From: Acidobacteriota bacterium
GTDB taxonomy: Bacteria; Acidobacteriota; Vicinamibacteria; Vicinamibacterales; 2-12-FULL-66-21
Assembly: GCA_046731735.1 (NCBI GenBank)
Contig: JBKPLP010000155.1
Span: 14,199 to 78,198 of the forward strand
Direction: 5' to 3'
DNA length: 64,000 nucleotides
Shown here: piece by piece, positions 18,579-40,130 of the stretch
Layout of the letters: every line of letters begins with the position of its first letter
Numbering within the stretch: position 1 is the stretch's first letter
Program-made: the position numbers and the translations under genes
Notes under the pieces: model-generated
Database searches by the model: none
Seen by the model: the letters and a program-made list of their open reading frames with translations, nothing else
What the model was told of the DNA's origin: nothing

Positions 18579-20024
18579 TTAATACTTCGACTGAGACGGG
18601 TCGATCCGGTCGATCCACTCCAGGATGCCACCCTTGAGATTGTGGATCCGCGTGAAGCCGCGCTCCTGAAGCAGCGCCACCGCCTTCGCGCTGCGCGCAC
18701 CCACTTTGCAGTGCACGACGAGATCGCGCGTCGCGTCGAGCTCCGCCGTGCGCCGGGGCAGCTCACCAAGGGGGATCAGCCTCGATCCCGCGATCCGGCA
18801 GATCTGAAACTCGTTCGGCTCCCGCACGTCGAGGAGGTCGAAGTCCTCGCCGCGGTCGATCTTCGCCTTCAAGTCTTCGACGGTGATCTCGGGAACGCCG
18901 CTGCCCGCCGGCTGCGCGTGTGCAGCGGGCACAATGCCGCAGAACTGATCGTAGTCGATGAGCGCCTTGATCGTCGGGTGATCGCCGCAGATCGGGCATT
19001 CGGGATCGCGTCGCAGCCGCAGCTCGCGGAACCGCATCTGCAGCGCGTCGTAGAGCAGCAGCCGTCCGACCAAGGGTTGGCCGGCGCCGAGGACCAACTT
19101 GATCGCTTCGGTGGCCTGAATGACGCCGATGACGCCCGGCAGCACGCCGAGCACCCCGCCTTCCGCGCAGCTCGGGACGAGACCCGGAGGAGGTGGTTCA
19201 GGATAGAGGCAGCGATAGCAGGGCCCGCCTTTCACCGCGAAGACGGACGCCTGGCCATCGAACCGGAAGATGCTGCCGTACGCGTTCGGCTTGCCCAGGA
19301 GCACGCACGCGTCGTTCACGAGGTAGCGCGTCTGGAAGTTGTCGGTTCCGTCGAGGATGACGTCGTAGTCCTTCAGCACGTCGAGCGCGTTCTTGGAGGT
19401 CAGCGTGACTTCGTGAAGGACGACGTTGACGCCCGCGTTCATCGCCATGATGCGCTCGCGCGCCGCCACGAGCTTCCGCCGTCCGACATCCGGGGTGCCG
19501 TAGATGATCTGCCGCTGCAAATTGCTCGAGTCGACGACATCGAAGTCCACAATCCCCAACGTGCCGATGCCGGCTGCCGCGAGATACATCGCCGCTGGCG
19601 CACCGAGCCCGCCGGCGCCTATGCACAGCACACTGGCCGCCTTCAGCTTGCGCTGTCCCTCGACGCCGACCTCCGGCATGATCAAATGACGGCTGTAGCG
19701 CTGCACTTCTTCACGCGTCAGTTCCGGAGCGGCGCGAACCGCCGCCCCCGACCCGCCCGCGACCGACGGCACGATGCTGATGGTGTCACCGGCCTTCAAG
19801 GTCGTCTTCTCGCGATCGAGGTGACGGATGTCTTCGTCGTTGACGTAGATGTTGACGAAGCTTCGCAGCCGTCCGTCCTCGGTGTAGAGGTGTCGGCGAA
19901 GATCGCCGTACTGGCCGATGAGCCCCTGCAGGGCATCGCCGACGGTTGTGCCTTCAACTTCGACGACGTCGCGCTTGCCGACAAACGGGCGGAGCGGCGT
20001 CGGGATCAGAATCCGATGGGCCAT
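18579..20024 (-). CDS. fusion protein: CysO/MoaD/ThiS-like sulfur-carrier domain (ends ...SVAGG) + MoeB/MoeZ-type E1 adenylyltransferase + C-terminal rhodanese
   Basis: Residues 1-91 resemble CysO-type carriers (FVNIYVNDEDIR...IVPSVAGG). These are followed by a RYSRHL / GAGGLG Rossmann fold, CxxC...CxxC, and a rhodanese domain with active-site CKVGARS. Confidence 0.85.
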   Translation of the reverse strand: MAHRILIPTPLRPFVGKRDVVEVEGTTVGDALQGLIGQYGDLRRHLYTEDGRLRSFVNIYVNDEDIRHLDREKTTLKAGDTISIVPSVAGGSGAAVRAAPELTREEVQRYSRHLIMPEVGVEGQRKLKAASVLCIGAGGLGAPAAMYLAAAGIGTLGIVDFDVVDSSNLQRQIIYGTPDVGRRKLVAARERIMAMNAGVNVVLHEVTLTSKNALDVLKDYDVILDGTDNFQTRYLVNDACVLLGKPNAYGSIFRFDGQASVFAVKGGPCYRCLYPEPPPPGLVPSCAEGGVLGVLPGVIGVIQATEAIKLVLGAGQPLVGRLLLYDALQMRFRELRLRRDPECPICGDHPTIKALIDYDQFCGIVPAAHAQPAGSGVPEITVEDLKAKIDRGEDFDLLDVREPNEFQICRIAGSRLIPLGELPRRTAELDATRDLVVHCKVGARSAKAVALLQERGFTRIHNLKGGILEWIDRIDPSQSKY

Positions 20025-20079
20025 GTCATGTCCTCAGTCGAGACGAAGAATCGCAGGCGATCGCCGGCGGGCACGGCGA

Positions 20080-21345
20080 TCAATGCCCCGCCGGCAGCAC
20101 CACCGCCGCTTCTCCCGACGAGCGAAGATACGCTTCGAAGTCCTGGAGCGATCGGCTGATTTGCACGGGCGGCGCGACGCGCGATCCGATGGTTTCCGCC
20201 GCTGTCTTGTACCCGTTGCCGGTAATGCAGATGACCACCGATTCGTCGGGCGCGATGGCGCCCGATTGCACCAGCTGAATGGTGCCGGCGAGCGTCGCGC
20301 CGCCGGCCGGCTCGGTGAAAATGCCTTCGGTTTCGGCGAGCAGCTCCATCGCCTGGAGAATCTGCTCGTCGGTCGACGCGACGCCGGTGCCACCGGTCGA
20401 CGTCACGGTCCGCACGACCTGGAACCCGTCCGCCGGGTTGCCGATCGCGATCGACTTCGCGATCGTCGACGGCTTGACCGGTTCGGGGTACTCGAGACCC
20501 TGCTCCAGCGCACGCACGACCGGCGCACAGCCCGCCGCCTGTGCCGCGTGGATCTTCGGCAGATCACCGGTGACCAGACCCACTTCGCGAAGCTCGCGGA
20601 ACGCTCTGAAGATTCGCGGCAGCAACGTACCACCGGCGACCGGAGACACCAGATGTTTCGGGAAACGCCACCCGAGCTGTTCGACGACTTCGAATCCGAG
20701 GGTTTTGGCCCCTTCCGCGTAGTAGCTGCGCAGATTGATGTTCGCGAAGCCCCATCCGAGCTTGTCGGCAACCTGCGTGCACAGCCGGTTGACGTCGTCG
20801 TAGTTGCCGCGAACCCCGATCACATGCGGCCGGAACACCGCCGACCCGAGCACCTTCCCGAGCTCGAGATCGTCCGGGATGAAGACGTAGCATTCCAGTC
20901 CGAGCCGCGCCGCGTGCGCCGACACGCTGTTCGCAAGATTTCCGGTGGACGCGCAGCCGAACACCGTGAAACCCAGTTCGACCGCGCGGGTTGCCGCGAT
21001 CGAGACCACTCGATCCTTGTACGAGAGCGTCGGATGATTGACCGAATCGTCCTTGATGAAGAGCTCCTGCAGGCCGAGCGTCCTGGCCAGGCGATCGGCC
21101 CGGACGAGCGGCGTACACCCCGAATGGAATCCGGTGCGCGGCTCACCGGTGATCGGCAGCAGCTCACGGAACCTCCACACGTTTCGAGGTCGCCGCTCCA
21201 CCACGTCGCGCGTGAGCGCGCCGCGTACGCCGTCGTAGTCGTAGACCACCTCGAGCGGACCCAGGCATTGATCGCAGACCCACAGCGCCTCGGCAGGAAA
21301 CTTCGCCCCGCACAGATGGCACTGGAGTCCCGTCATGAACGTCAT
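20080..21345 (-). CDS. threonine-synthase-family PLP enzyme (second ThrC paralog; candidate O-phosphohomoserine sulfhydrylase, MetM-like)
   Basis: N-terminal CxxC...CxxC ribbon and a PLP lysine context (PTLSYKDR). Sits between thrB and the sulfur-carrier/E1 gene. Confidence 0.8.
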   Translation of the reverse strand: MTFMTGLQCHLCGAKFPAEALWVCDQCLGPLEVVYDYDGVRGALTRDVVERRPRNVWRFRELLPITGEPRTGFHSGCTPLVRADRLARTLGLQELFIKDDSVNHPTLSYKDRVVSIAATRAVELGFTVFGCASTGNLANSVSAHAARLGLECYVFIPDDLELGKVLGSAVFRPHVIGVRGNYDDVNRLCTQVADKLGWGFANINLRSYYAEGAKTLGFEVVEQLGWRFPKHLVSPVAGGTLLPRIFRAFRELREVGLVTGDLPKIHAAQAAGCAPVVRALEQGLEYPEPVKPSTIAKSIAIGNPADGFQVVRTVTSTGGTGVASTDEQILQAMELLAETEGIFTEPAGGATLAGTIQLVQSGAIAPDESVVICITGNGYKTAAETIGSRVAPPVQISRSLQDFEAYLRSSGEAAVVLPAGH

Positions 21346-22289
21346 GCTTTACCTTTCCCTTTACCTTTCCGTCGCGCGACTGAGCTCGAGACCGCCCCGA
21401 GTCTGGTCGAAGCGCGATGCACCGGCACCGCCCTGATCGTGCAGGCGACCCGCTCCTGCCGGTACGCCTGTTTCAAAATCCGTTCTGCCGCGGCCGTCGG
21501 TCCGTTCGTGAACGCGGCGATGGATGGGCCGGCTCCGCTCAGGCAGAACCCGATCACATCAGGATGCCGCACCGAGAGCAGCCGGCGCAACCCCGGCACC
21601 AGCCGCTCCCGATACGGCTGGTGAACGCGATCGCGGAGCGCCTCCCGAAAATCGTCCGCATCAGCCGACTGGAGCGCGCCGAGGAGGAGTGCCAGCCGCT
21701 GCAGGTTGAACACCGCGTCGCCGACCGGCAGCCGACTCGGGATCGCCCGCCGCGAAAGCGGGGTCGGCAGCTCCAGTGCTGGTGTCGCGACGACGATGCG
21801 CCATGCGCGCGGCCACGGCCACCGGGCAACCCGGATCGTTCCGTCTGCCATGGCGCAGCAGCTCGTCACACCGCCAAACAAGGAAGGCGCGACGTTGTCC
21901 GGGTGCCCTTCGATCTTGGACGCTGCCGAGAGAATTTCGGCCCCGGGCCGCCTGCCGTCCACGAGTTCACGCAGCCGCAGGCCGGCCACGGTGGCGGCGG
22001 CACTGCTTCCCAGCCCGGAGCGCAGTGGAATCTCGCTATGCACTTCGACCTCGAGCGACGGAGCCCGCTTGACACGGCCGAGCGCGCGAAATCCGTCCGC
22101 GATCCGATTCGGCCCCCCGATGGGTCCGTCCACGAAATGCCACGTCAGCCTGCCGCGGCCGTCGTGCTCGATATTCCTGACGCGTAGCCGCAGATACAAC
22201 CCCACTGCAAGGCCCAGCGTGTCGAACCCGGGGCCGAGATTCGCGATGGATCCGGGCACGACAATCTCGCGTGGCCTCACGCGCTGCAT
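21342..22289 (-). CDS. thrB: homoserine kinase
   Basis: Trimmed to MQRVRPREIVVPGSIANLGPGFDTLG. GHMP kinase motif PLRSGLGSSAA. The start overlaps the sulfite reductase stop, and the stop overlaps the next ATG. Confidence 0.85.
   Translation of the reverse strand: MQRVRPREIVVPGSIANLGPGFDTLGLAVGLYLRLRVRNIEHDGRGRLTWHFVDGPIGGPNRIADGFRALGRVKRAPSLEVEVHSEIPLRSGLGSSAAATVAGLRLRELVDGRRPGAEILSAASKIEGHPDNVAPSLFGGVTSCCAMADGTIRVARWPWPRAWRIVVATPALELPTPLSRRAIPSRLPVGDAVFNLQRLALLLGALQSADADDFREALRDRVHQPYRERLVPGLRRLLSVRHPDVIGFCLSGAGPSIAAFTNGPTAAAERILKQAYRQERVACTIRAVPVHRASTRLGAVSSSVARRKGKGKGKA
21347..21370. repeat. CTTTACCTTTCC x2 (TACCTTT family)
   Basis: Lies inside the last 10 codons of the thrB ORF, where it is translated as KGKGKGKA, directly upstream of the next gene's ATG. 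Confidence 0.8.
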
Positions 22290-24127
22290 TCGCCGTCCAT
22301 GACCTCCGGATTGAACGCGTGATCTTCGCCTGGATCGATGAAGTCCTGCGGCCGGACGTCGTCGGCCGTCAGCTGCTCGAGATCCGCCACCGCGGCTCGC
22401 GCCCGCGCGGTGTCGACCCGGTGGAAGAACGTGCCGGCACTCTCGCCGTGTGCCCGTTCCACTTCGTACAGTTTCAATAAACGCTCGACCGCTTCCGGAA
22501 TGCGACGCGCGGGAATCTTCGCGGTCAGGCGGCCGAACTGTGCGCCGTCCTGTCCCTGTCCACCGCCAAGCATCAGAAAGTACTGCGGTACCGCGCGGTC
22601 GCCGAGCTTTCTCACGCTTCCCTGGAATCCGATGCTCGCCACGTGATGCTGCCCGCAGCCGTTCGGGCAGCCACTGATCTTGATCCGCGCGTCCGACGCA
22701 ATCCGCAGCAGTGCGGGCGATTGCTGCTCCAGGTTCTCTTCGATCAGTTTCGCGAGGCCTCGCGACTGCGTGACCGCGAGACGGCACGACTCGGCGCCGG
22801 GACAGCTGGTGACGTCGGTGATCGTGCCCGCGCCGGCGCGCGCGAGACCCGCGGCGGCAAGCCGTCGATACAGCCCAGGCACCTGCCCGCTGCGTACCCA
22901 CCGCAGCAGCAGGTTCTGATCCACTGTGGTGCGCACCAGGCCGTCCGCGTACGCTTTCGACAGCGCGGCGATCGCGCGCATCTGACCCGACGTGATGTCG
23001 CCGAGCTCCAGCGAAACGGTCACCTGGGAGTACTCGCTCTGTTTCTGAGGCCGCAGATTCGTCCGCAGCCACTCGCTGCGCTCACGGCCAGGGCCGCCAT
23101 CTCCTGTCTCCCGCAGCGGGACAATCCCCGGCCCCTTCACCGCGGTCGCACCGACGAGCGCGGCAATGTCGGCGATCGCCGGCGGCTCCGCGCGCTCCGA
23201 CTCAGGCGCCTGTTCAACCGGCGGATTCTCCGGATCGAAGGGCAGGCGTGCGGCGGCGGATGCGCGAAGATCCTCGAGTTCGCGCTGAAACTCGGCGTGC
23301 CACGCCTCCCAACCCATCTTCTTCACGAGGAATTTCAGCCGGTTCCGCTGCTTATGTTCGTAATCGCCATGCCGTTGGAAGACGCGCAGCACCGCTTCCG
23401 CCACCATCAGGATCTCGGATGCCGGCAGGAACTCGTACAGCGATGCGCCCGAACGGCACATGATCGACGTGCCGCCGGCGACCTGCACCCTGAAACCGCG
23501 AGCGCCGGAGCCATCCGGCGCCAGCATCGCGCGATACCCCAGGTCGTTGATTGAGGTTGCCGTATGGTCCTCGGACGCGCATCCCTCGAACGCGATCTTG
23601 AACTTGCGCGGAAGCGCGGAACTGAGCGGATGGCGCAGCAGATAGCGCGTCATCGCCTCCGCATACGGCGTGACGTCGAAGATCTCGTCGCGCGCGACTC
23701 CGGCGTGCGGGCACGCGGTGATATTGCGCACGGAGTTGCCGCACGCTTCACGCGTCGTCAATCCGCTGTCCGCGAGACGCCGCAGGGCGGGCTCTGCGTC
23801 GTGCAACTTCACGAAGTGAAACTGCACGTTCTGCCTGGTCGAAATGTGGCCGAACCCGCGTGAGTAGCGGTCGGCGACGTCGGCGAGCGCCTCCAGCTGC
23901 GCCGCATCCAGAATGCCTTGCGGGATCTTCACGCGCAGCATCTGCGCGTCCGCGTCCTGCCGTTGCCCGTACGTGCCTCGCAGCAAACGGAACCGACGCC
24001 ACTCCTCGGGTGATATGTCGCCGCGCTCGAACTGATCGAGTGTGCGCACGAACTCGTCGATGTCGTTGGTATCGGCAAAGGACAGCCGGGTGCGGCCGTA
24101 AGTGCGAGGATCGTCCAAGACTGCCAT
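22277..24127 (-). CDS. ferredoxin-dependent sulfite reductase (NirA/Sir family, siroheme-[4Fe-4S])
   Basis: Trimmed to MAVLDDPRTYGRT. Two nitrite/sulfite reductase repeats and cluster cysteines (TSCPGAESC, SGCPNGC). Adjacent to siroheme synthesis genes. Confidence 0.85.
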   Translation of the reverse strand: MAVLDDPRTYGRTRLSFADTNDIDEFVRTLDQFERGDISPEEWRRFRLLRGTYGQRQDADAQMLRVKIPQGILDAAQLEALADVADRYSRGFGHISTRQNVQFHFVKLHDAEPALRRLADSGLTTREACGNSVRNITACPHAGVARDEIFDVTPYAEAMTRYLLRHPLSSALPRKFKIAFEGCASEDHTATSINDLGYRAMLAPDGSGARGFRVQVAGGTSIMCRSGASLYEFLPASEILMVAEAVLRVFQRHGDYEHKQRNRLKFLVKKMGWEAWHAEFQRELEDLRASAAARLPFDPENPPVEQAPESERAEPPAIADIAALVGATAVKGPGIVPLRETGDGGPGRERSEWLRTNLRPQKQSEYSQVTVSLELGDITSGQMRAIAALSKAYADGLVRTTVDQNLLLRWVRSGQVPGLYRRLAAAGLARAGAGTITDVTSCPGAESCRLAVTQSRGLAKLIEENLEQQSPALLRIASDARIKISGCPNGCGQHHVASIGFQGSVRKLGDRAVPQYFLMLGGGQGQDGAQFGRLTAKIPARRIPEAVERLLKLYEVERAHGESAGTFFHRVDTARARAAVADLEQLTADDVRPQDFIDPGEDHAFNPEVMDGECSA

Positions 24128-24132
24128 ATGAG

Positions 24133-24909
24133 TTATATCCCGCTCAGACTTCGGCGCTCGGCTTCGGCGTGCCGCACCGCGTCCTGCGTTGAAAGAAGGC
24201 CAGCCAGCGCCGCGACCGCCCCGACGACGATGACGCCCGGCAGGCCGCTGTCCTCGACGGCGTCCCGCACGGCGAGTAAATCGAGCGTGCCGTGCCACTC
24301 CTCCGCCCCGGGGTGCGAGGCGCCGAACAGCACGGCCGCCGGAGTCTGCGCAGCCCAGCCCGATGCGCGCAGCTGGTCGACGATCGCCGCACGATTCGCG
24401 ATGCCCATGAGTACGACGATCGTCGCGCTGCCCGGCGCCAGCGACCGCAGCACCGGCCCATACGCCGACTCGGCATGGCCCGAGAGGACGATGAACGCAG
24501 ATGCCAGACCGCGATGCGTGACGGGAATCCCCGCAAGCAGCGGCGCCGCGATGGCGCTGCTGATTCCCGGAACGACTTCACAGGGGATGCCTGCGGCAGC
24601 GAGGGCCAGCGCCTCTTCGCCGCCGCGGCCGAACACGAACGGGTCGCCGCACTTCAGGCGGACGACCTTGTGGCCGCGCCGCGCCTCGCGAACCATCAGC
24701 CGGTTGATCGCGTCCTGCCGGATCGCCGGGCGCCCCGCGCGCTTACCGACGAAGAAACGCCGCGCGCGCGCGGCATGGCGCAACGCGGCAGTATCCACGA
24801 GCGCATCGTAGAGCACCAGATCCGCTTCCTCGAGACGCCGCACGGCCTTGACGGTGAGCAGCTCCGGATCGCCCGGGCCGGCGCCGATGAGGGAGACAGA
24901 ACCAGTCAT
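24133..24909 (-). CDS. cobA: uroporphyrinogen-III C-methyltransferase
   Basis: 258 aa with LIGAGPGDPELLT and GDPFVFGRGGEE motifs. Confidence 0.9.
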   Translation of the reverse strand: MTGSVSLIGAGPGDPELLTVKAVRRLEEADLVLYDALVDTAALRHAARARRFFVGKRAGRPAIRQDAINRLMVREARRGHKVVRLKCGDPFVFGRGGEEALALAAAGIPCEVVPGISSAIAAPLLAGIPVTHRGLASAFIVLSGHAESAYGPVLRSLAPGSATIVVLMGIANRAAIVDQLRASGWAAQTPAAVLFGASHPGAEEWHGTLDLLAVRDAVEDSGLPGVIVVGAVAALAGLLSTQDAVRHAEAERRSLSGI

Positions 24910-25697
24910 TTTTTACTCTGCGCTGGGGCCCCACCCCCAGCGCCTGCCAGCACTCGCTCATCGCTCGTGCCGCTGTTTCGATCGACATCCCGCTTAGTCA
25001 ACATCGGGGCCCCACCCTCAACGCCTGCCAGCACTCGCTCATCGCTCGTGCCGCTGGTTCGATCGACATCCCGCTTAGTCAACATCGGGGCCCCACCCTC
25101 AACGCCTGCCAGCACTCGCTCATCGCTCGTGCCGCTGGTTCGATCGACATCCCGCTTAGTCGACATCGATCTCGATGTGTAGAGCGCATTCAGGGCTTCG
25201 AGCAGCTCCGGGCGGCGTGCCTCCATCGGCACTTCCCGCTCGCGCCATGAGCGGCGCAGCTCGTGTGCGCGCTCGCTCCAACTCTCGAGATCACTCGGGA
25301 GCAGGGCATCCAGCGCTTCGCGAAGCAGTCCCGCGAGCGCGGGCGCCGCTCCGTCGGTCGAGATCCCCAGCGTCACCCCGCCCCGACGGACGACGCCGCC
25401 GAGATACACGGTGGCGTTCGCGGGATCGTCGACGGCGTTCACGAAAACCTGCCGGCGCTCCGCTGCCTCCGCCACACGGCGATTGACCTCGGGGGGCGCG
25501 GCCGCAACAACGAACCAGGCCTCGTCGACATCCGACGGCTCGAAACCCCGGCGCTCGATTCGTACGCCGGCGGCCTCGACCTCTTGGCACACGTCGGGCG
25601 CGACGACCGTCACGTCAGCGCCAGCGGCCTTCAGTGCGGCCAGCTTCGACGCGGCGACAGGACCGGCGCCGACGACGAGCACCCGGCGGCGGTGCAA
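24906..25697 (-). CDS. sirC: precorrin-2 dehydrogenase / sirohydrochlorin ferrochelatase (SirC/CysG-N type) with repeat-derived C-terminal tail
   Basis: VLVVGAGPVAASKL Rossmann fold and a VNAVDDP motif. TTG 25697 or GTG 25682 start. The last ~85 aa are encoded by the 81-bp tandem repeat. Confidence 0.75.
   Translation of the reverse strand: MHRRRVLVVGAGPVAASKLAALKAAGADVTVVAPDVCQEVEAAGVRIERRGFEPSDVDEAWFVVAAAPPEVNRRVAEAAERRQVFVNAVDDPANATVYLGGVVRRGGVTLGISTDGAAPALAGLLREALDALLPSDLESWSERAHELRRSWREREVPMEARRPELLEALNALYTSRSMSTKRDVDRTSGTSDERVLAGVEGGAPMLTKRDVDRTSGTSDERVLAGVEGGAPMLTKRDVDRNSGTSDERVLAGAGGGAPAQSKK
24925..25167. repeat. 81-bp tandem repeat x3
   Basis: Copies start at 24925, 25006 and 25087 and differ by only a few substitutions. 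The unit is ~GGGGCCCCACCCTCAACGCCTGCCAGCACTCGCTCATCGCTCGTGCCGCTGGTTCGATCGACATCCCGCTTAGTCAACATC. Confidence 0.95.
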
Positions 25698-25743
25698 CTT
25701 CAGGAACGCTGGGAACAGGGCGATGACGGCAACTCCTTTCCAT

Positions 25744-25786
25744 GAAAAACAAAAAGCCCGGGAGGTGTCTGGCCTCCCGGGCTTCG
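25744..25786 (-). terminator. intrinsic terminator / attenuator hairpin upstream of sirC
   Basis: Minus strand reads AAGCCCGGGAGG-ccagaca-CCTCCCGGGCTT followed by TTTGTTTTT. The 12-bp GC stem lies 20 nt after the poly-Cys leader stop. Confidence 0.8.
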
Positions 25787-25809
25787 TTATGTCTCGTGCG
25801 TTGAATGCT

Positions 25810-25908
25810 TTAGAACATCACGCCTGGACCGAAGGCAGGGAAGCCCCGAATGCTGCACATACAGCAGCAGCAGCAACAATTACAGGCGCAGGGGTTCCCG
25901 TAGAGCAT
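25810..25908 (-). CDS. candidate polycysteine leader peptide (32 aa)
   Basis: ATG CTC TAC GGG AAC CCC TGC GCC TGT AAT TGT TGC TGC TGC TGC TGT ATG TGC AGC ATT CGG GGC TTC CCT GCC TTC GGT CCA GGC GTG ATG TTC TAA = MLYGNPCACNCCCCCCMCSIRGFPAFGPGVMF. Confidence 0.6.
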   Translation of the reverse strand: MLYGNPCACNCCCCCCMCSIRGFPAFGPGVMF

Positions 25909-25915
25909 TTTGCTG

Positions 25916-25945
25916 TTTATACCCCACCTCAGGCCGGAATCGCAA
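25916..25945 (-). promoter_or_regulatory. candidate promoter TTGCGA-N18-TATAAA for the poly-Cys leader (near-leaderless)
   Basis: Minus strand reads TTGCGAttccggcctgaggtggggTATAAAcagcaaaATG. The -35 element lies in the last codons of thrC. Confidence 0.35.
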
Positions 25946-27254
25946 GATCGAGGTGCCTCCGCACCTGGTCATAATCGTTGGGCAGCTCGATGGGGCGGTT
26001 CGCCCGCCGCGACACGATCCCCTCCAGGGTGCCCGCGTGGTAGCCCGCCTTGAAATCCGTGAATTTCAGGCCGCTCGCGGTCGAAATCACCACCACCCGG
26101 TCGCTTGCCTTGATCTCGCCTCGTCCTGCGAGCTTGATCAGTGCGGCCAGCGCAACGCCGGTGTGCGGACACGCGAACATGCCGGTCTTGTCGGCATGAG
26201 CGACCGCGTCCGCAAGCTCCTGCTCGTTGGCCTGTTCGACTGTCCCGCCGGAGCGCTTCAGGGCGGCAATCGCCTTCTGCACGGAAACCGGGTTCCCGAT
26301 TTGAATCGCCGACGCGAGCGTCGGACGCGCGGTGACCGGCTTGAATTGCCAGCGATTCAGCGACGCCAGGTAAAGCGGGTTGGCCGCTTCGGCCTGCGCC
26401 GCGATCAGTCGCGGCACGCGCGCAACCAGGCCAAGGTCCCGCATCATCTCAAAGCCGGCGGCGAACGCGCTGATGTTTCCCAGGTTGCCCGCCGGGACGA
26501 TGACGACGTCCGGCACCTGCCAGTCGAACTGCTGGGCAATCTCGATGGCGACCGTCTTCTGCCCTTCGAGCCGCAGACTGTTCATCGAGTTCGCCAGGTA
26601 CAGCCCTTCGTCGTCGGCCAGCCGCTGGATGATCGCCATGCACCCGTCAAAATCCGTGTCGAGTGCGAAGACGACCGCTCCGTTGGCCAGGGGCTGGACC
26701 AGTTGCGCGACGGTCACTTTCCCCCGCGGCAGCACGACAATGGCGGGAATCTCCGCGGCGGCGGCGTACGCGGCAAGCGATGCCGACGTATCGCCCGTGG
26801 ACGCGCAGCCGACTGCGCGGATCTGCTTCCCCTGGGCCATCATCTGGCGGACCATGGACACGAGCACCGTCATCCCGAGGTCCTTGAACGATCCCGTGTG
26901 CGAGTTGCCACACAACTTGACCCAGACGTCCTTCAAGCCGATCGATCGGCCGAACGCGTCGGCGAGAAACAGATTCGTGCCCCCCTCATCCATCGAGACT
27001 ACGTTCTCATCTTCGATTTCCGGGCAGACCCACTCCTTCTTGCCCCAGACGCTCGATCCGTACGGCCATGCGGTGCGCTTGTACCGTTCATCGAAGAGAC
27101 GCATCCACGCCGCCGCGCTCCGGTCGCGGAGCGCGTCCAGGTCGTGAACGACCTCGAGCAGACCGCCGCAGGTCGGACAGCGGTAGATGACCGTGTCCAG
27201 CGAATACGACCCGGGACAGCCGGCGACGCAGCGGAACTCGGCGCGATAGCTCAC
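25929..27254 (-). CDS. thrC: threonine synthase
   Basis: 441 aa. N-terminal Zn-ribbon-like CxxC...CxxC and a PLP lysine context (HTGSFKDLG). Confidence 0.9.
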
Positions 27255-38427: not shown

Positions 38428-40130
38428 AGATTCCGCGGCGGACGTACGTCGATCTTTACGGCCCCACCACCGGAGATCGCGTTCGCCTCGGGGACACGTC
38501 TCTCGTGCTCGAGATCGACCGCGACCATGCGCGGTATGGTGACGAGGTCGTGTTCGGTGGCGGCAAGGTCATCCGCGATGGACAAGGGCAATCCCAGGCA
38601 ACCCGCGCGGCGGGCGCGCCGGACCTCGTGATCACGAACGCCATCGTCGTGGATCACTGGGGCGTCGTAAAGGCCGACGTGGGCGTCCGCGACGGCCGCA
38701 TCAGTGCGATCGGAAAGGCCGGCAATCCCGACATTCAGGACGGGGTCACGCCCGGTCTCGAGATCGGTCCGTCGACTGAAATCCTCGCGGGCGAGCATCG
38801 AATCCTGACCGCGGGCGGAATCGATTCCCACATCCACTTCATCAGCCCGCAGCAGGCGTGGGAAGCGCTCTACAGCGGCATCACCACCATGATCGGCGGC
38901 GGCACCGGGCCGGCGGAAGGCACGCGGGCGACGACCTGCACGCCCGGTGAGTGGAACATTCGACGGATGCTGGAAGCAGCCGAAGGACTGCCGCTGAATT
39001 TCGGGTTCCTGGGAAAAGGCAACGCGTCCCTGCCGGACCCGCTGGTCGAGCAGATCGTCGCCGGAGCGATTGGCCTGAAGCTGCACGAAGATTGGGGCAC
39101 GACGCCGCAGGCAATCGACACCGCGCTCGGCGTCGCGGACGAGTACGACGTGCAGGTCGCGATTCATACCGACACGCTGAACGAATCAGGATTCGTCGAG
39201 GACACGCTCGCCGCCTTCAAGGGCCGGACGATTCACACCTACCACAGCGAAGGTGCCGGCGGCGGGCACGCCCCCGACATCATGAAGGTCTGCGGTCAGC
39301 CAAACGTGCTGCCGTCGAGCACGAACCCGACGATGCCGTACACGGTGAACACGCTCGACGAGCACCTGGACATGCTGATGGTCTGCCATCACCTCAACCC
39401 GCAGGTACCCGAAGACGTCGCGTTCGCCGAGTCGCGAATACGGCCGGAGACGATGGCCGCGGAGGACGTCCTGCACGATCTCGGCGCGATCAGCATGATG
39501 TCATCCGACTCGCAGGCGATGGGCCGCGTCGGCGAAGTCATCACACGCACGTGGCAGACGGCGCACGTGATGAAAGAGACGCGAGGCGCGCTCCGCGGCG
39601 ATCGGGCGGAGAACGACAACCTGCGCATACGCCGTTACGTCGCGAAGTACACGATCAATCCCGCACGCACGCACGGGATCGCCGATTACGTCGGGTCGAT
39701 CGAGGTCGGCAAGTGGGCTGACCTCGTGTTATGGTCGCCGGCCTTTTTCGGCGTCAAACCCGACCTCATCGTCAAGGGCGGGATGATCGTCGCGGCACTG
39801 ATGGGAGACCCCAACGCGTCCATCCCGACGCCTGAGCCGGTGCGGTATCGGCCGATGTTCGGCGCGCTGGGCAAAGCGCCCGACGGGCTCGCGGCGACGT
39901 TCGTCTCGCGCGCCGCGCTCGACTCGAGGTCGCTGCCGGCATCGCTCCGGCGGACCCTGCTGCCGGTGCGGAACACGCGGACGCTCGGCAAACGGGATAT
40001 GGCCATGAACGATGCGCTGCCGTCGATCGAGATCGATGCGGAGCGCTATACCGTCACCATCGATGGAGAGAGAATAGAGCCGAAGGCCGCGGCGCGGCTG
40101 CCGCTGGCACAGCGGTATTTTTTGTTCTGA
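38424..40130 (+). CDS. ureC: urease subunit alpha
   Basis: 568 aa with [16 protein letters not shown] and MVCHHL motifs. Confidence 0.95.

Follow-up and report, generated by a model that had tools for sequence, protein, structure and literature searches.

A conserved poly-cysteine leader with an intrinsic terminator, probably a cysteine-responsive transcription attenuator, precedes the sirC sulfur operon of an uncultured Vicinamibacterales bacterium

What is a run of cysteine codons doing in the short gap between a threonine synthase gene (thrC) and sirC, the first gene of a sulfur-assimilation operon? The question is raised by a 64-kb stretch of DNA (64,000 nucleotides (nt), called the window throughout, with all coordinates counted from its first letter) from an uncultured member of the Vicinamibacterales (Acidobacteriota). 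On its minus strand, from 25908 to 25810, lies an ATG-started open reading frame (ORF) of 32 codons followed by TAA, which reads MLYGNPCACNCCCCCCMCSIRGFPAFGPGVMF and contains nine cysteine (Cys) residues, six of them consecutive, and three methionines. An earlier reading made from the letters alone (hereafter the sequence-only reading) had described this ORF with the same position and composition, as our ORF listing confirms, and had proposed that it belongs to a Cys-sensing attenuator. The core of that proposal withstood all of the computational tests that we ran, which draw on sequence comparison and folding models. We conclude that the element is quite probably a transcription attenuator of the leader-peptide type, in which the ribosome senses how well tRNA-Cys is charged.

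The leader element is real and lies beyond chance. Runs of at least four consecutive TGY codons are expected 0.04 times per 64-kb window, none of 100 shuffled sequences matched the observed count, and the leader is the sole locus within the window with a poly-TGY run. Its coding parts are as follows.

25810 to 25908, minus strand: leader ORF, 32 codons plus TAA, MLYGNPCACNCCCCCCMCSIRGFPAFGPGVMF (from the ORF listing; a small ORF (sORF) with a Cys run is kept among relatives)
25855 to 25890, minus strand: the regulatory Cys codons C7, C9, C11 to C16 and C18, mRNA nt 19-54 (from the chance expectation of 0.04, the TGC/TGT variation and the modelled stall optimum)

We compared this region with 160 related loci from Vicinamibacterales and other Acidobacteriota, 80 from genomes and 80 from metagenomes. 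A poly-Cys sORF occupies the spacer 5′ of sirC in about 45 of the 80 genome loci, and in nearly all of these it is followed by a terminator 22-45 nt past its stop codon. Conservation of the Cys-rich ORF in orthologous spacers had been set beforehand as a test of the attenuator proposal; over the full set, 91 of 160 loci carry a Cys-run sORF and 77 have a terminator as well (within about 120 nt), all 77 hairpins ending in a canonical U-tract. Where sirC is not the first gene, the poly-Cys leader and its terminator sit 1-2 kb upstream, before cysH, a TauE/SafE-like permease gene or thrB, and the gene upstream of the leader varies between loci of the window's own subfamily. The leader thus tracks the sulfur operon and not the upstream gene.

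Between subfamilies the Cys run is the only part of the peptide that is conserved (for example MFSGNPCACNCCCCMQ..., VFKMCGCACACC..., VMKCTCACCCCCVA... and MSTCICCCCCCKGS...). Its Cys codons are divided between TGC (n = 130) and TGT (n = 114) across the family, and the length of the run differs by whole codons. Following the run, an 18-nt block, GGGCTTCCCTGCCTTCGG, is nearly invariant in the window's subfamily, where it is translated as GLPCLR in most genomes and as GFPAFG in the window and in loci L013, L021 and L083, owing to an indel just upstream. Because the same nucleotides are read in two frames, the block is selected as RNA and not as peptide. Taken at the sequence level, these comparisons indicate that selection acts on the Cys codons rather than on the peptide that they specify. 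A methionine codon directly 3′ of the Cys run (CCCCM; 25858-25860, minus strand) is also kept in the window's subfamily and sits in the loop of a small hairpin, GCUGCUG-UAU-GCAGC, that is built from the Cys codons. This codon may be structural, or it may encode a second sensed residue, as the operon also makes homocysteine.

How would so short a message be started? No Shine-Dalgarno sequence precedes the leader start, either in the window or in the leaders of its relatives. A search for the promoter pattern TTGnnn-N16-19-TAnnnn-N5-11-(A/G)TG, with the start codon in frame with the Cys ORF, revealed a match in 34 of 36 leaders, consisting of TTGnnn (nearly all TTGAC), 16-19 nt, TAnnnn, 5-10 nt and an in-frame ATG or GTG. 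Between the −10 hexamer and the start codon there are 5-10 nt across the family, and in the window's subfamily nearly every member has a spacing of 7 nt. From this promoter-to-start geometry, which is fixed across divergent subfamilies, we infer that the leader mRNA is leaderless or carries at most 3 nt ahead of its start codon. As the geometry is family-wide, it would imply leaderless translation in Acidobacteriota. The promoter elements of the window are as follows.

25940 to 25945, minus strand: −35 hexamer TTGCGA, overlapping the last thrC codons (TTGACT or TTGACC in relatives)
25916 to 25921, minus strand: −10 hexamer TATAAA, 7 nt 5′ of the ATG (spacing kept across the family)

The sequence-only reading had named this promoter, TTGCGA-N18-TATAAA; its coordinates and its 7-nt distance to the ATG hold, but a consensus promoter scan of the window did not call it, probably because the scan demands a T at position 6, which TATAAA does not have. 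Relatives have a far better promoter at this place, TTGACT-N18-TATAAC.

Past the leader, a terminator scan identified a hairpin running from 25785 to 25753, with 13 pairs (9 of them G-C) and a 7-nt loop, followed by UUGUUUUUCA. The hairpin has a folding energy of −25.7 kcal/mol when folded alone and begins about 24 nt 3′ of the leader stop codon. Its existence and its U-rich tail had been recognised from the letters, and only the measures change, from 12 bp to 13 pairs and from 20 to about 24 nt after the stop. The terminator and the start of the regulated operon are laid out as follows.

25753 to 25785, minus strand: intrinsic terminator hairpin, with its 5′ arm at 25785-25773, loop at 25772-25766 and 3′ arm at 25765-25753 (from the terminator scan and folding)
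25744 to 25752, minus strand: terminator U-tract, UUUGUUUUU (from the sequence and the terminator scan)
25733 to 25737, minus strand: Shine-Dalgarno sequence AGGAG of sirC, about 15 nt 3′ of the hairpin and not sequestered (from the sequence and relatives)
24906 to 25724, minus strand: sirC (precorrin-2 dehydrogenase/ferrochelatase), first regulated gene, probable start ATC 25724 (from homologs and the N-terminus)

The sirC start had been placed at TTG 25697 or GTG 25682. As both would leave out the conserved N-terminus (I)ALFPAFLKL, which is encoded further upstream, comparison with homologs makes ATC 25724, 8 nt after AGGAG, the most likely start. A non-canonical AUC start 6-8 nt after AGGAG appears to be used in the window and in L002-L016, L021, L083 and L085, with AUA in L011, L015 and L016. 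At least 13 loci begin the (I)ALFPAFLKL sequence with no in-frame ATG, GTG or TTG, and an ATG is found there in L017, L032 and all other subfamilies. Gene callers begin sirC at GTG 25682, so that conserved residues are lost. We also observed insertions of 60-150 nt that resemble tandem repeats (CCAGTTTCCAGT..., AACTGGTAACTGG..., GAGCGACCGAGC...) between the terminator and sirC in L010, L017, L018 and L032, and in L070 and L106.

On the other side of the leader, no separate terminator was found after thrC (stop codon 25929-25931) in the window between 25909 and 25945 on the minus strand. An RNA reading through from ask-hom-thrC would hold the leader AUG at an internal position with no Shine-Dalgarno sequence, so that the leader would go untranslated on it, and such transcripts would probably end at the attenuator terminator by default.

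Could the hairpin act on translation instead of transcription? In a translational attenuator of the mycobacterial kind, it would block the sirC start until a stalled ribosome opened it, and termination would be secondary or absent. Several divergent subfamilies (L033, L036, L039, L045, L049-L051, L077, L078, L096-L098 and others) do have the sirC ATG only 3-10 nt past the U-tract with no recognisable Shine-Dalgarno sequence, which puts the hairpin within the ribosome binding footprint, and in these subfamilies the terminator hairpin could also affect translation initiation; moreover, the sole experimentally characterised leaderless polycysteine sORF acts in this manner. The canonical U-tract that follows every hairpin at the 77 loci would, however, be needless for simple occlusion, in some relatives the terminator and sirC are 60-150 nt apart, with unrelated sequence in between, and in the window and its subfamily AGGAG and the sirC start lie about 15-30 nt beyond the hairpin, unpaired in predicted folds. 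A Shine-Dalgarno sequence outside the hairpin favours transcriptional over translational control in the window. Translational attenuation does not fit the window but has to be taken seriously in subfamilies whose sirC ATG comes straight after the U-tract; as the explanation of the leader we consider it unlikely.

What, then, could keep the terminator from forming? Three further RNA elements are predicted upstream of it.

25891 to 25899, minus strand: segment 1, GGGAACCCC (mRNA nt 10-18), candidate anti-antiterminator strand that would pair with segment 2 when free of ribosomes (nascent fold, −16.9 kcal/mol)
25828 to 25847, minus strand: segment 2, antiterminator strand GGGGCUUCCCUGCCUUCGGU (mRNA nt 62-81), kept as nucleotides in two frames and predicted to pair with the terminator 5′ arm
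25798 to 25824, minus strand: hairpin between segment 2 and the terminator (mRNA nt 85-111), spanning the sORF stop and enclosed by the antiterminator helix (from predicted folds, its role being presumed)

The predicted folds change as the RNA grows. In a nascent RNA of 72-82 nt carrying no ribosome, the minimum-energy fold pairs nt 10-18 with nt 62-71 (−16.9 kcal/mol), which is the protector pairing put forward by the sequence-only reading; between 77% and 94% of the corresponding cells in the subfamily alignment are paired. At 90-112 nt a closing helix joins nt 20-26 to nt 83-89, and the 5′ end then pairs with nt 92-104. We did not take this closing helix (P1) as a main element: a single compensatory change is present, found in the window, yet that same pair is mismatched in 8 of 25 sequences. 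The antiterminator, in which GGCUUCCCUGCCUUC (nt 64-79) is paired with GAAGCCCGGGAGGCC (nt 124-138), is the minimum-energy fold at 138-143 nt, and the terminator forms from 150 nt on. The hairpin at nt 85-111 is paired in 54-98% of the subfamily alignment cells, depending on the sub-helix.

A shorter antiterminator had been proposed, in which GGGCUUC (25846-25840) pairs with GAAGCCC (25785-25779, both on the minus strand). The two motifs are found at these positions, but this 7-bp duplex has an energy of −11.3 kcal/mol, against −24.1 kcal/mol for the GGCUUCCCUGCCUUC/GAAGCCCGGGAGGCC duplex and −25.7 kcal/mol for the terminator, so that the longer duplex and not the 7-bp register is probably the main antiterminator. 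On these modelled energies an antiterminator is plausible. A CCUGAAC motif located 10-25 nt 5′ of the terminator recurs in several otherwise divergent subfamilies, the window having the variant UUCUAAAGC (25810-25822 region, minus strand); it may be the 3′ strand of the hairpin inside the antiterminator, or a partner of the mRNA 5′ end.

We then asked of the whole family how a ribosome on the leader bears on these structures. For 65 leaders we modelled the energy gained when the terminator 5′ arm may pair upstream in the nascent RNA, assuming a ribosome footprint of 30 nt. The mean gain was −9.5 kcal/mol in free RNA, −12.8 to −14.7 kcal/mol with a ribosome on the Cys codons and −8.8 kcal/mol with a ribosome at the stop codon, and in 59 of the 65 leaders a modelled stall on Cys makes the gain larger. 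When the ribosome is slid along the leader, the gain reaches its maximum of −13.95 once the A-site occupies the first Cys codon of the uninterrupted run, is near −13 from three codons before to three codons after that position, collapses at five to six codons past the start of the run and is about −7 from six codons onward. In 62% of leaders the best place to stall is a Cys codon, compared with 22% expected from the share of Cys among the codons. To control for relatedness, leaders were clustered at 70% identity, and the stall effect is seen in 19 of the 22 resulting clusters for each comparison (p about 3e-5 to 4e-4). Single linkage at 62% identity and average linkage at a distance of at least 0.40 were discarded because they merged almost everything, the background identity of these GC-rich sequences being about 60%.

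The antiterminator strand and the terminator arm also appear to co-evolve across the family. In a swap test, pairing with the leader's own terminator arm is 3.8 kcal/mol more favourable than pairing with dissimilar arms taken from other leaders (50 of 62 leaders), and the accessible region does better than shuffled sequences in 58 of 62 leaders (mean z of −1.8). Duplex z-scores from a first pass, in which the accessible region was less well defined than in the later swap test, were only moderate against shuffles (mean of −1.4). Within the window's subfamily (25 sequences), 96% of cells are paired for the antiterminator (14 pairs), 91% for the terminator, and 94% and 77% for the two sub-helices between segments 1 and 2. 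The parts of the element, their conservation and pairing potential, and the position of the Cys codons among them can all be read directly from these loci.

Several results weigh against an attenuator that works in this way. The full-length leader at equilibrium always adopts the terminator (P about 0.95), and the terminator state is about 12 kcal/mol better than the antiterminator even under a ribosome mask. Folding with the Cys codons masked, a check suggested along with the sequence-only reading, likewise gave no switch of structure, the terminator winning. With the terminator favoured at equilibrium, any switch must be kinetic, and the model depends on kinetics; in classical attenuators, too, switching is generally assumed to be kinetic. 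Segment 1 has an unusual place, 5′ of the Cys codons, where a stalled ribosome would cover it directly only from the first few of these codons. The stall effect modelled for the window itself is small (−13.1 kcal/mol free and −12.8 to −14.4 kcal/mol stalled), the energy statistics are built on related sequences and an assumed 30-nt footprint, and TTGCGA is a weak −35 hexamer. Compensatory changes in the pairing segments, a second suggested check, were not significant in the close subfamily: no helix has significant covariation among the 25 sequences, which are too similar to one another to yield it, the antiterminator shows 0 double changes, and the helix between segments 1 and 2 is indistinguishable from shuffles.

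With these points weighed, a leader-peptide attenuator is the reading that we prefer, and it would work as follows. Transcription would start at the AUG or within a few nt of it, and a ribosome would load on the 5′ end with no need of a Shine-Dalgarno sequence. When Cys-tRNA is plentiful, the ribosome would pass the Cys codons and cover the antiterminator strand (nt 62-81) or, once gone, leave it to be held by segment 1 (nt 10-18) and the closing helices; either way, the 13-bp terminator would form and RNA polymerase would halt before sirC. When Cys-tRNA is scarce, a ribosome stalled on codons 7-18 would hide segment 1 and leave the antiterminator strand free past its leading edge. The freed strand would then pair with the emerging terminator 5′ arm, no terminator would form, and the operon would be transcribed. 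From sequence and folding, the model thus supposes that initiation is leaderless, that the ribosome stalls, that the structures compete kinetically and that expression responds to cysteine. If these suppositions are correct, the design would suit leaderless initiation, with loading at the 5′ end and, in the window's subfamily, an antiterminator-silencing strand upstream of the sensing codons. The terminator would in addition insulate the sulfur operon from ask-hom-thrC read-through.

Might the RNA do its work untranslated? In a riboswitch or protein-binding RNA, the Cys codons would be incidental to a structure rich in UGC and UGU, and conserved RNA blocks do exist; a conserved GCAGC shortly after the UGCUGC run is also able to pair with it. 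The frame, however, is always open from the promoter-fixed start through the Cys run to a stop codon 22-45 nt before the terminator, the Cys codons vary synonymously with a run length that varies by whole codons, and the structures outside the terminator differ between subfamilies, unlike a ligand-binding aptamer. A search against Rfam found no family relevant to the leader at the gathering score in the 64-kb window, and at E ≤ 10 the interval 25500-26100 gave only sub-threshold matches to unrelated small RNA (sRNA) and microRNA models. We regard an untranslated element as very improbable.

Slighter still is the chance of a functional Cys-rich peptide (metal-binding or the precursor of a modified peptide) with the hairpin as its own terminator or that of the thrC operon: the ORF is conserved and Cys-rich, one distant relative's peptide has a sub-threshold match to the streptolysin S family (16.9 bits, cut-off 35) and the window has no separate terminator after thrC, but the leader peptides match no Pfam or NCBIfam family above threshold, the Cys run alone is conserved, the C-terminal half occurs in two frames over the same nucleotides, the flanks are wholly different from one subfamily to another, the adjacent genes code for sulfur-assimilation enzymes and none for modification or export, and the element stays before sulfur operons whatever gene lies upstream. 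A hairpin that is merely the thrC terminator is opposed by the order of thrC stop, promoter, sORF and terminator and by the variable upstream gene; the leader terminator may also stop thrC read-through.

Which genes would the attenuator govern? The same-strand, closely spaced or overlapping ORFs from sirC to 18579 suggest a single operon, with aspartate kinase, homoserine dehydrogenase and ThrC encoded upstream of the leader. The genes that follow sirC, which had been described from the letters as serving siroheme synthesis, sulfite reduction and the homocysteine branch, are assigned to these same functions by homology.

18579 to 24909, minus strand: rest of the operon, same-strand ORFs that are close or overlapping
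24133 to 24909, minus strand: cobA/SUMT (uroporphyrinogen-III methyltransferase), by homology
About 22277 to 24298, minus strand: NirA-family sulfite reductase, by homology
21342 to 23072, minus strand: listed ORF of thrB (homoserine kinase), by homology
20080 to 21345, minus strand: second threonine-synthase (ThrC) paralog, resembling MetM, by homology
18579 to 20024, minus strand: ThiS/SAMP-MoeZ-rhodanese fusion, a single polypeptide with a ThiS/SAMP-like domain, MoeZ/ThiF and rhodanese, by homology

The MetM protein, a ThrC homolog, has been described in a recent preprint as making homocysteine from O-phosphohomoserine and a protein thiocarboxylate. Judged by homology, thrB, the ThrC paralog and the ThiS/SAMP-MoeZ-rhodanese fusion, which make up the tail of the operon (18579-22400, minus strand), would together form such a MetM/MetO thiocarboxylate route to homocysteine. 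In the fusion (18579-20024), the sulfur carrier would be joined to its own activating enzyme. The listed thrB ORF (21342-23072, 576 amino acids from GTG) shares about 800 nt with the sulfite reductase ORF; the true thrB start must be much further downstream, as judged from the kinase domain, which begins at about residue 270. Elsewhere in the window, positions 38570-38865 on the minus strand match the Rfam family 5_ureB_sRNA (RF02514) with 92.6 bits over the full model, which we would guess reflects the conserved coding sequence of the urease gene ureB rather than an sRNA.

The closest SirC homologs and the 80 genome loci all come from metagenome-assembled genomes of Vicinamibacterales or other Acidobacteriota, and the host of the window is an uncultured member of the Vicinamibacterales. 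Searched for by exact match, the window's ThrC gave only a metagenome contig of 1.7 kb with no gene context. Acidobacteriota are among the most abundant soil bacteria and their gene regulation is almost unknown, a gap that the leader helps to fill. It would provide a simple sequence-level signal for sulfur assimilation in an order of mostly uncultured organisms and would mark cysteine-responsive operons, including those with a MetM/MetO-type thiocarboxylate route to homocysteine. For annotation, poly-Cys sORFs of this kind should not be recorded as hypothetical proteins.

A wider claim, to which we give even chances, is that Vicinamibacteria own an independently evolved ‘cysteine ribulon’ of leaderless poly-Cys sORFs and intrinsic terminators, placed ahead of whichever gene leads the sulfate-assimilation and homocysteine operons (sirC, cysH, a TauE-like permease gene or thrB), which would be the first leader-peptide attenuator family described in Acidobacteriota and the first Cys-specific one with classical terminator/antiterminator switching. 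We found no report of such an element in Acidobacteria in open-access papers and preprints, and the sequence-only reading had known of none for this kind of organism or operon. The sensing principle is already known; what is new here is the terminator-coupled form of the poly-Cys leader and the phylum in which it occurs.

How does the leader compare with known systems? Classical leader-peptide attenuators control trp, his, leu, thr, ilv and pheA in Proteobacteria, and trp and ilvB in some Actinobacteria. The element shares with them a short ORF in which codons for the sensed amino acid stand in a row, and a downstream intrinsic terminator, here with a candidate alternative partner for its 5′ arm further upstream; as modelled, the position of the ribosome would decide the structure, and the operon would supply the pathway of the sensed amino acid. 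It differs in sensing Cys, in an apparently leaderless mRNA with no leader Shine-Dalgarno sequence, in its acidobacterial host and, in the window's subfamily, in a candidate anti-antiterminator strand that lies 5′ of the regulatory codons, and it has no sequence or Rfam relationship to the classical leaders. The S-box (SAM-I) riboswitches and Cys T-boxes of Firmicutes sense S-adenosylmethionine (SAM) or uncharged tRNA directly, without translation. They are functional analogues, in that sulfur amino-acid genes are controlled by a terminator and antiterminator at the RNA level, but no such Rfam family was detected at the leader.

The closest counterparts are actinobacterial. Cys leader peptides have been predicted by comparative genomics 5′ of cys and cbs operons in Mycobacterium, Propionibacterium acnes and Bifidobacterium longum (Seliverstov et al. 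2005, PMC1262725). These too are sORFs with Cys-codon runs ahead of cysteine-metabolism operons, but they were reported to be ‘without obvious terminators’, with Rho-dependent termination suggested (PMC1262725), whereas the leaders described here have clear intrinsic terminators and a candidate antiterminator. In the mycobacterial ‘Cys ribulon’, the leaderless polycysteine sORF Ms5788A is a translational attenuator, the Shine-Dalgarno sequence of the gene that follows being masked within an RNA duplex (Canestrari et al. 2020, bioRxiv 10.1101/834739). Such sORFs are the first cistrons of sulfur and cysteine operons, and pausing at their Cys codons has been proposed to relieve the repression (bioRxiv 10.1101/834739). 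The acidobacterial leader resembles them in its consecutive Cys codons, its place at the head of a sulfur operon and its probable leaderless architecture, here judged from promoter geometry. Unlike the mycobacterial case, which has no intrinsic terminator, it has a conserved terminator with a U-tract and a sirC Shine-Dalgarno sequence outside the hairpin. The two leaders share only the Cys run and belong to different phyla, and we assume that they likely have independent origins. Poly-Cys sensing in a second phylum, coupled to transcription termination where mycobacteria couple it to translation, would point to convergent evolution.

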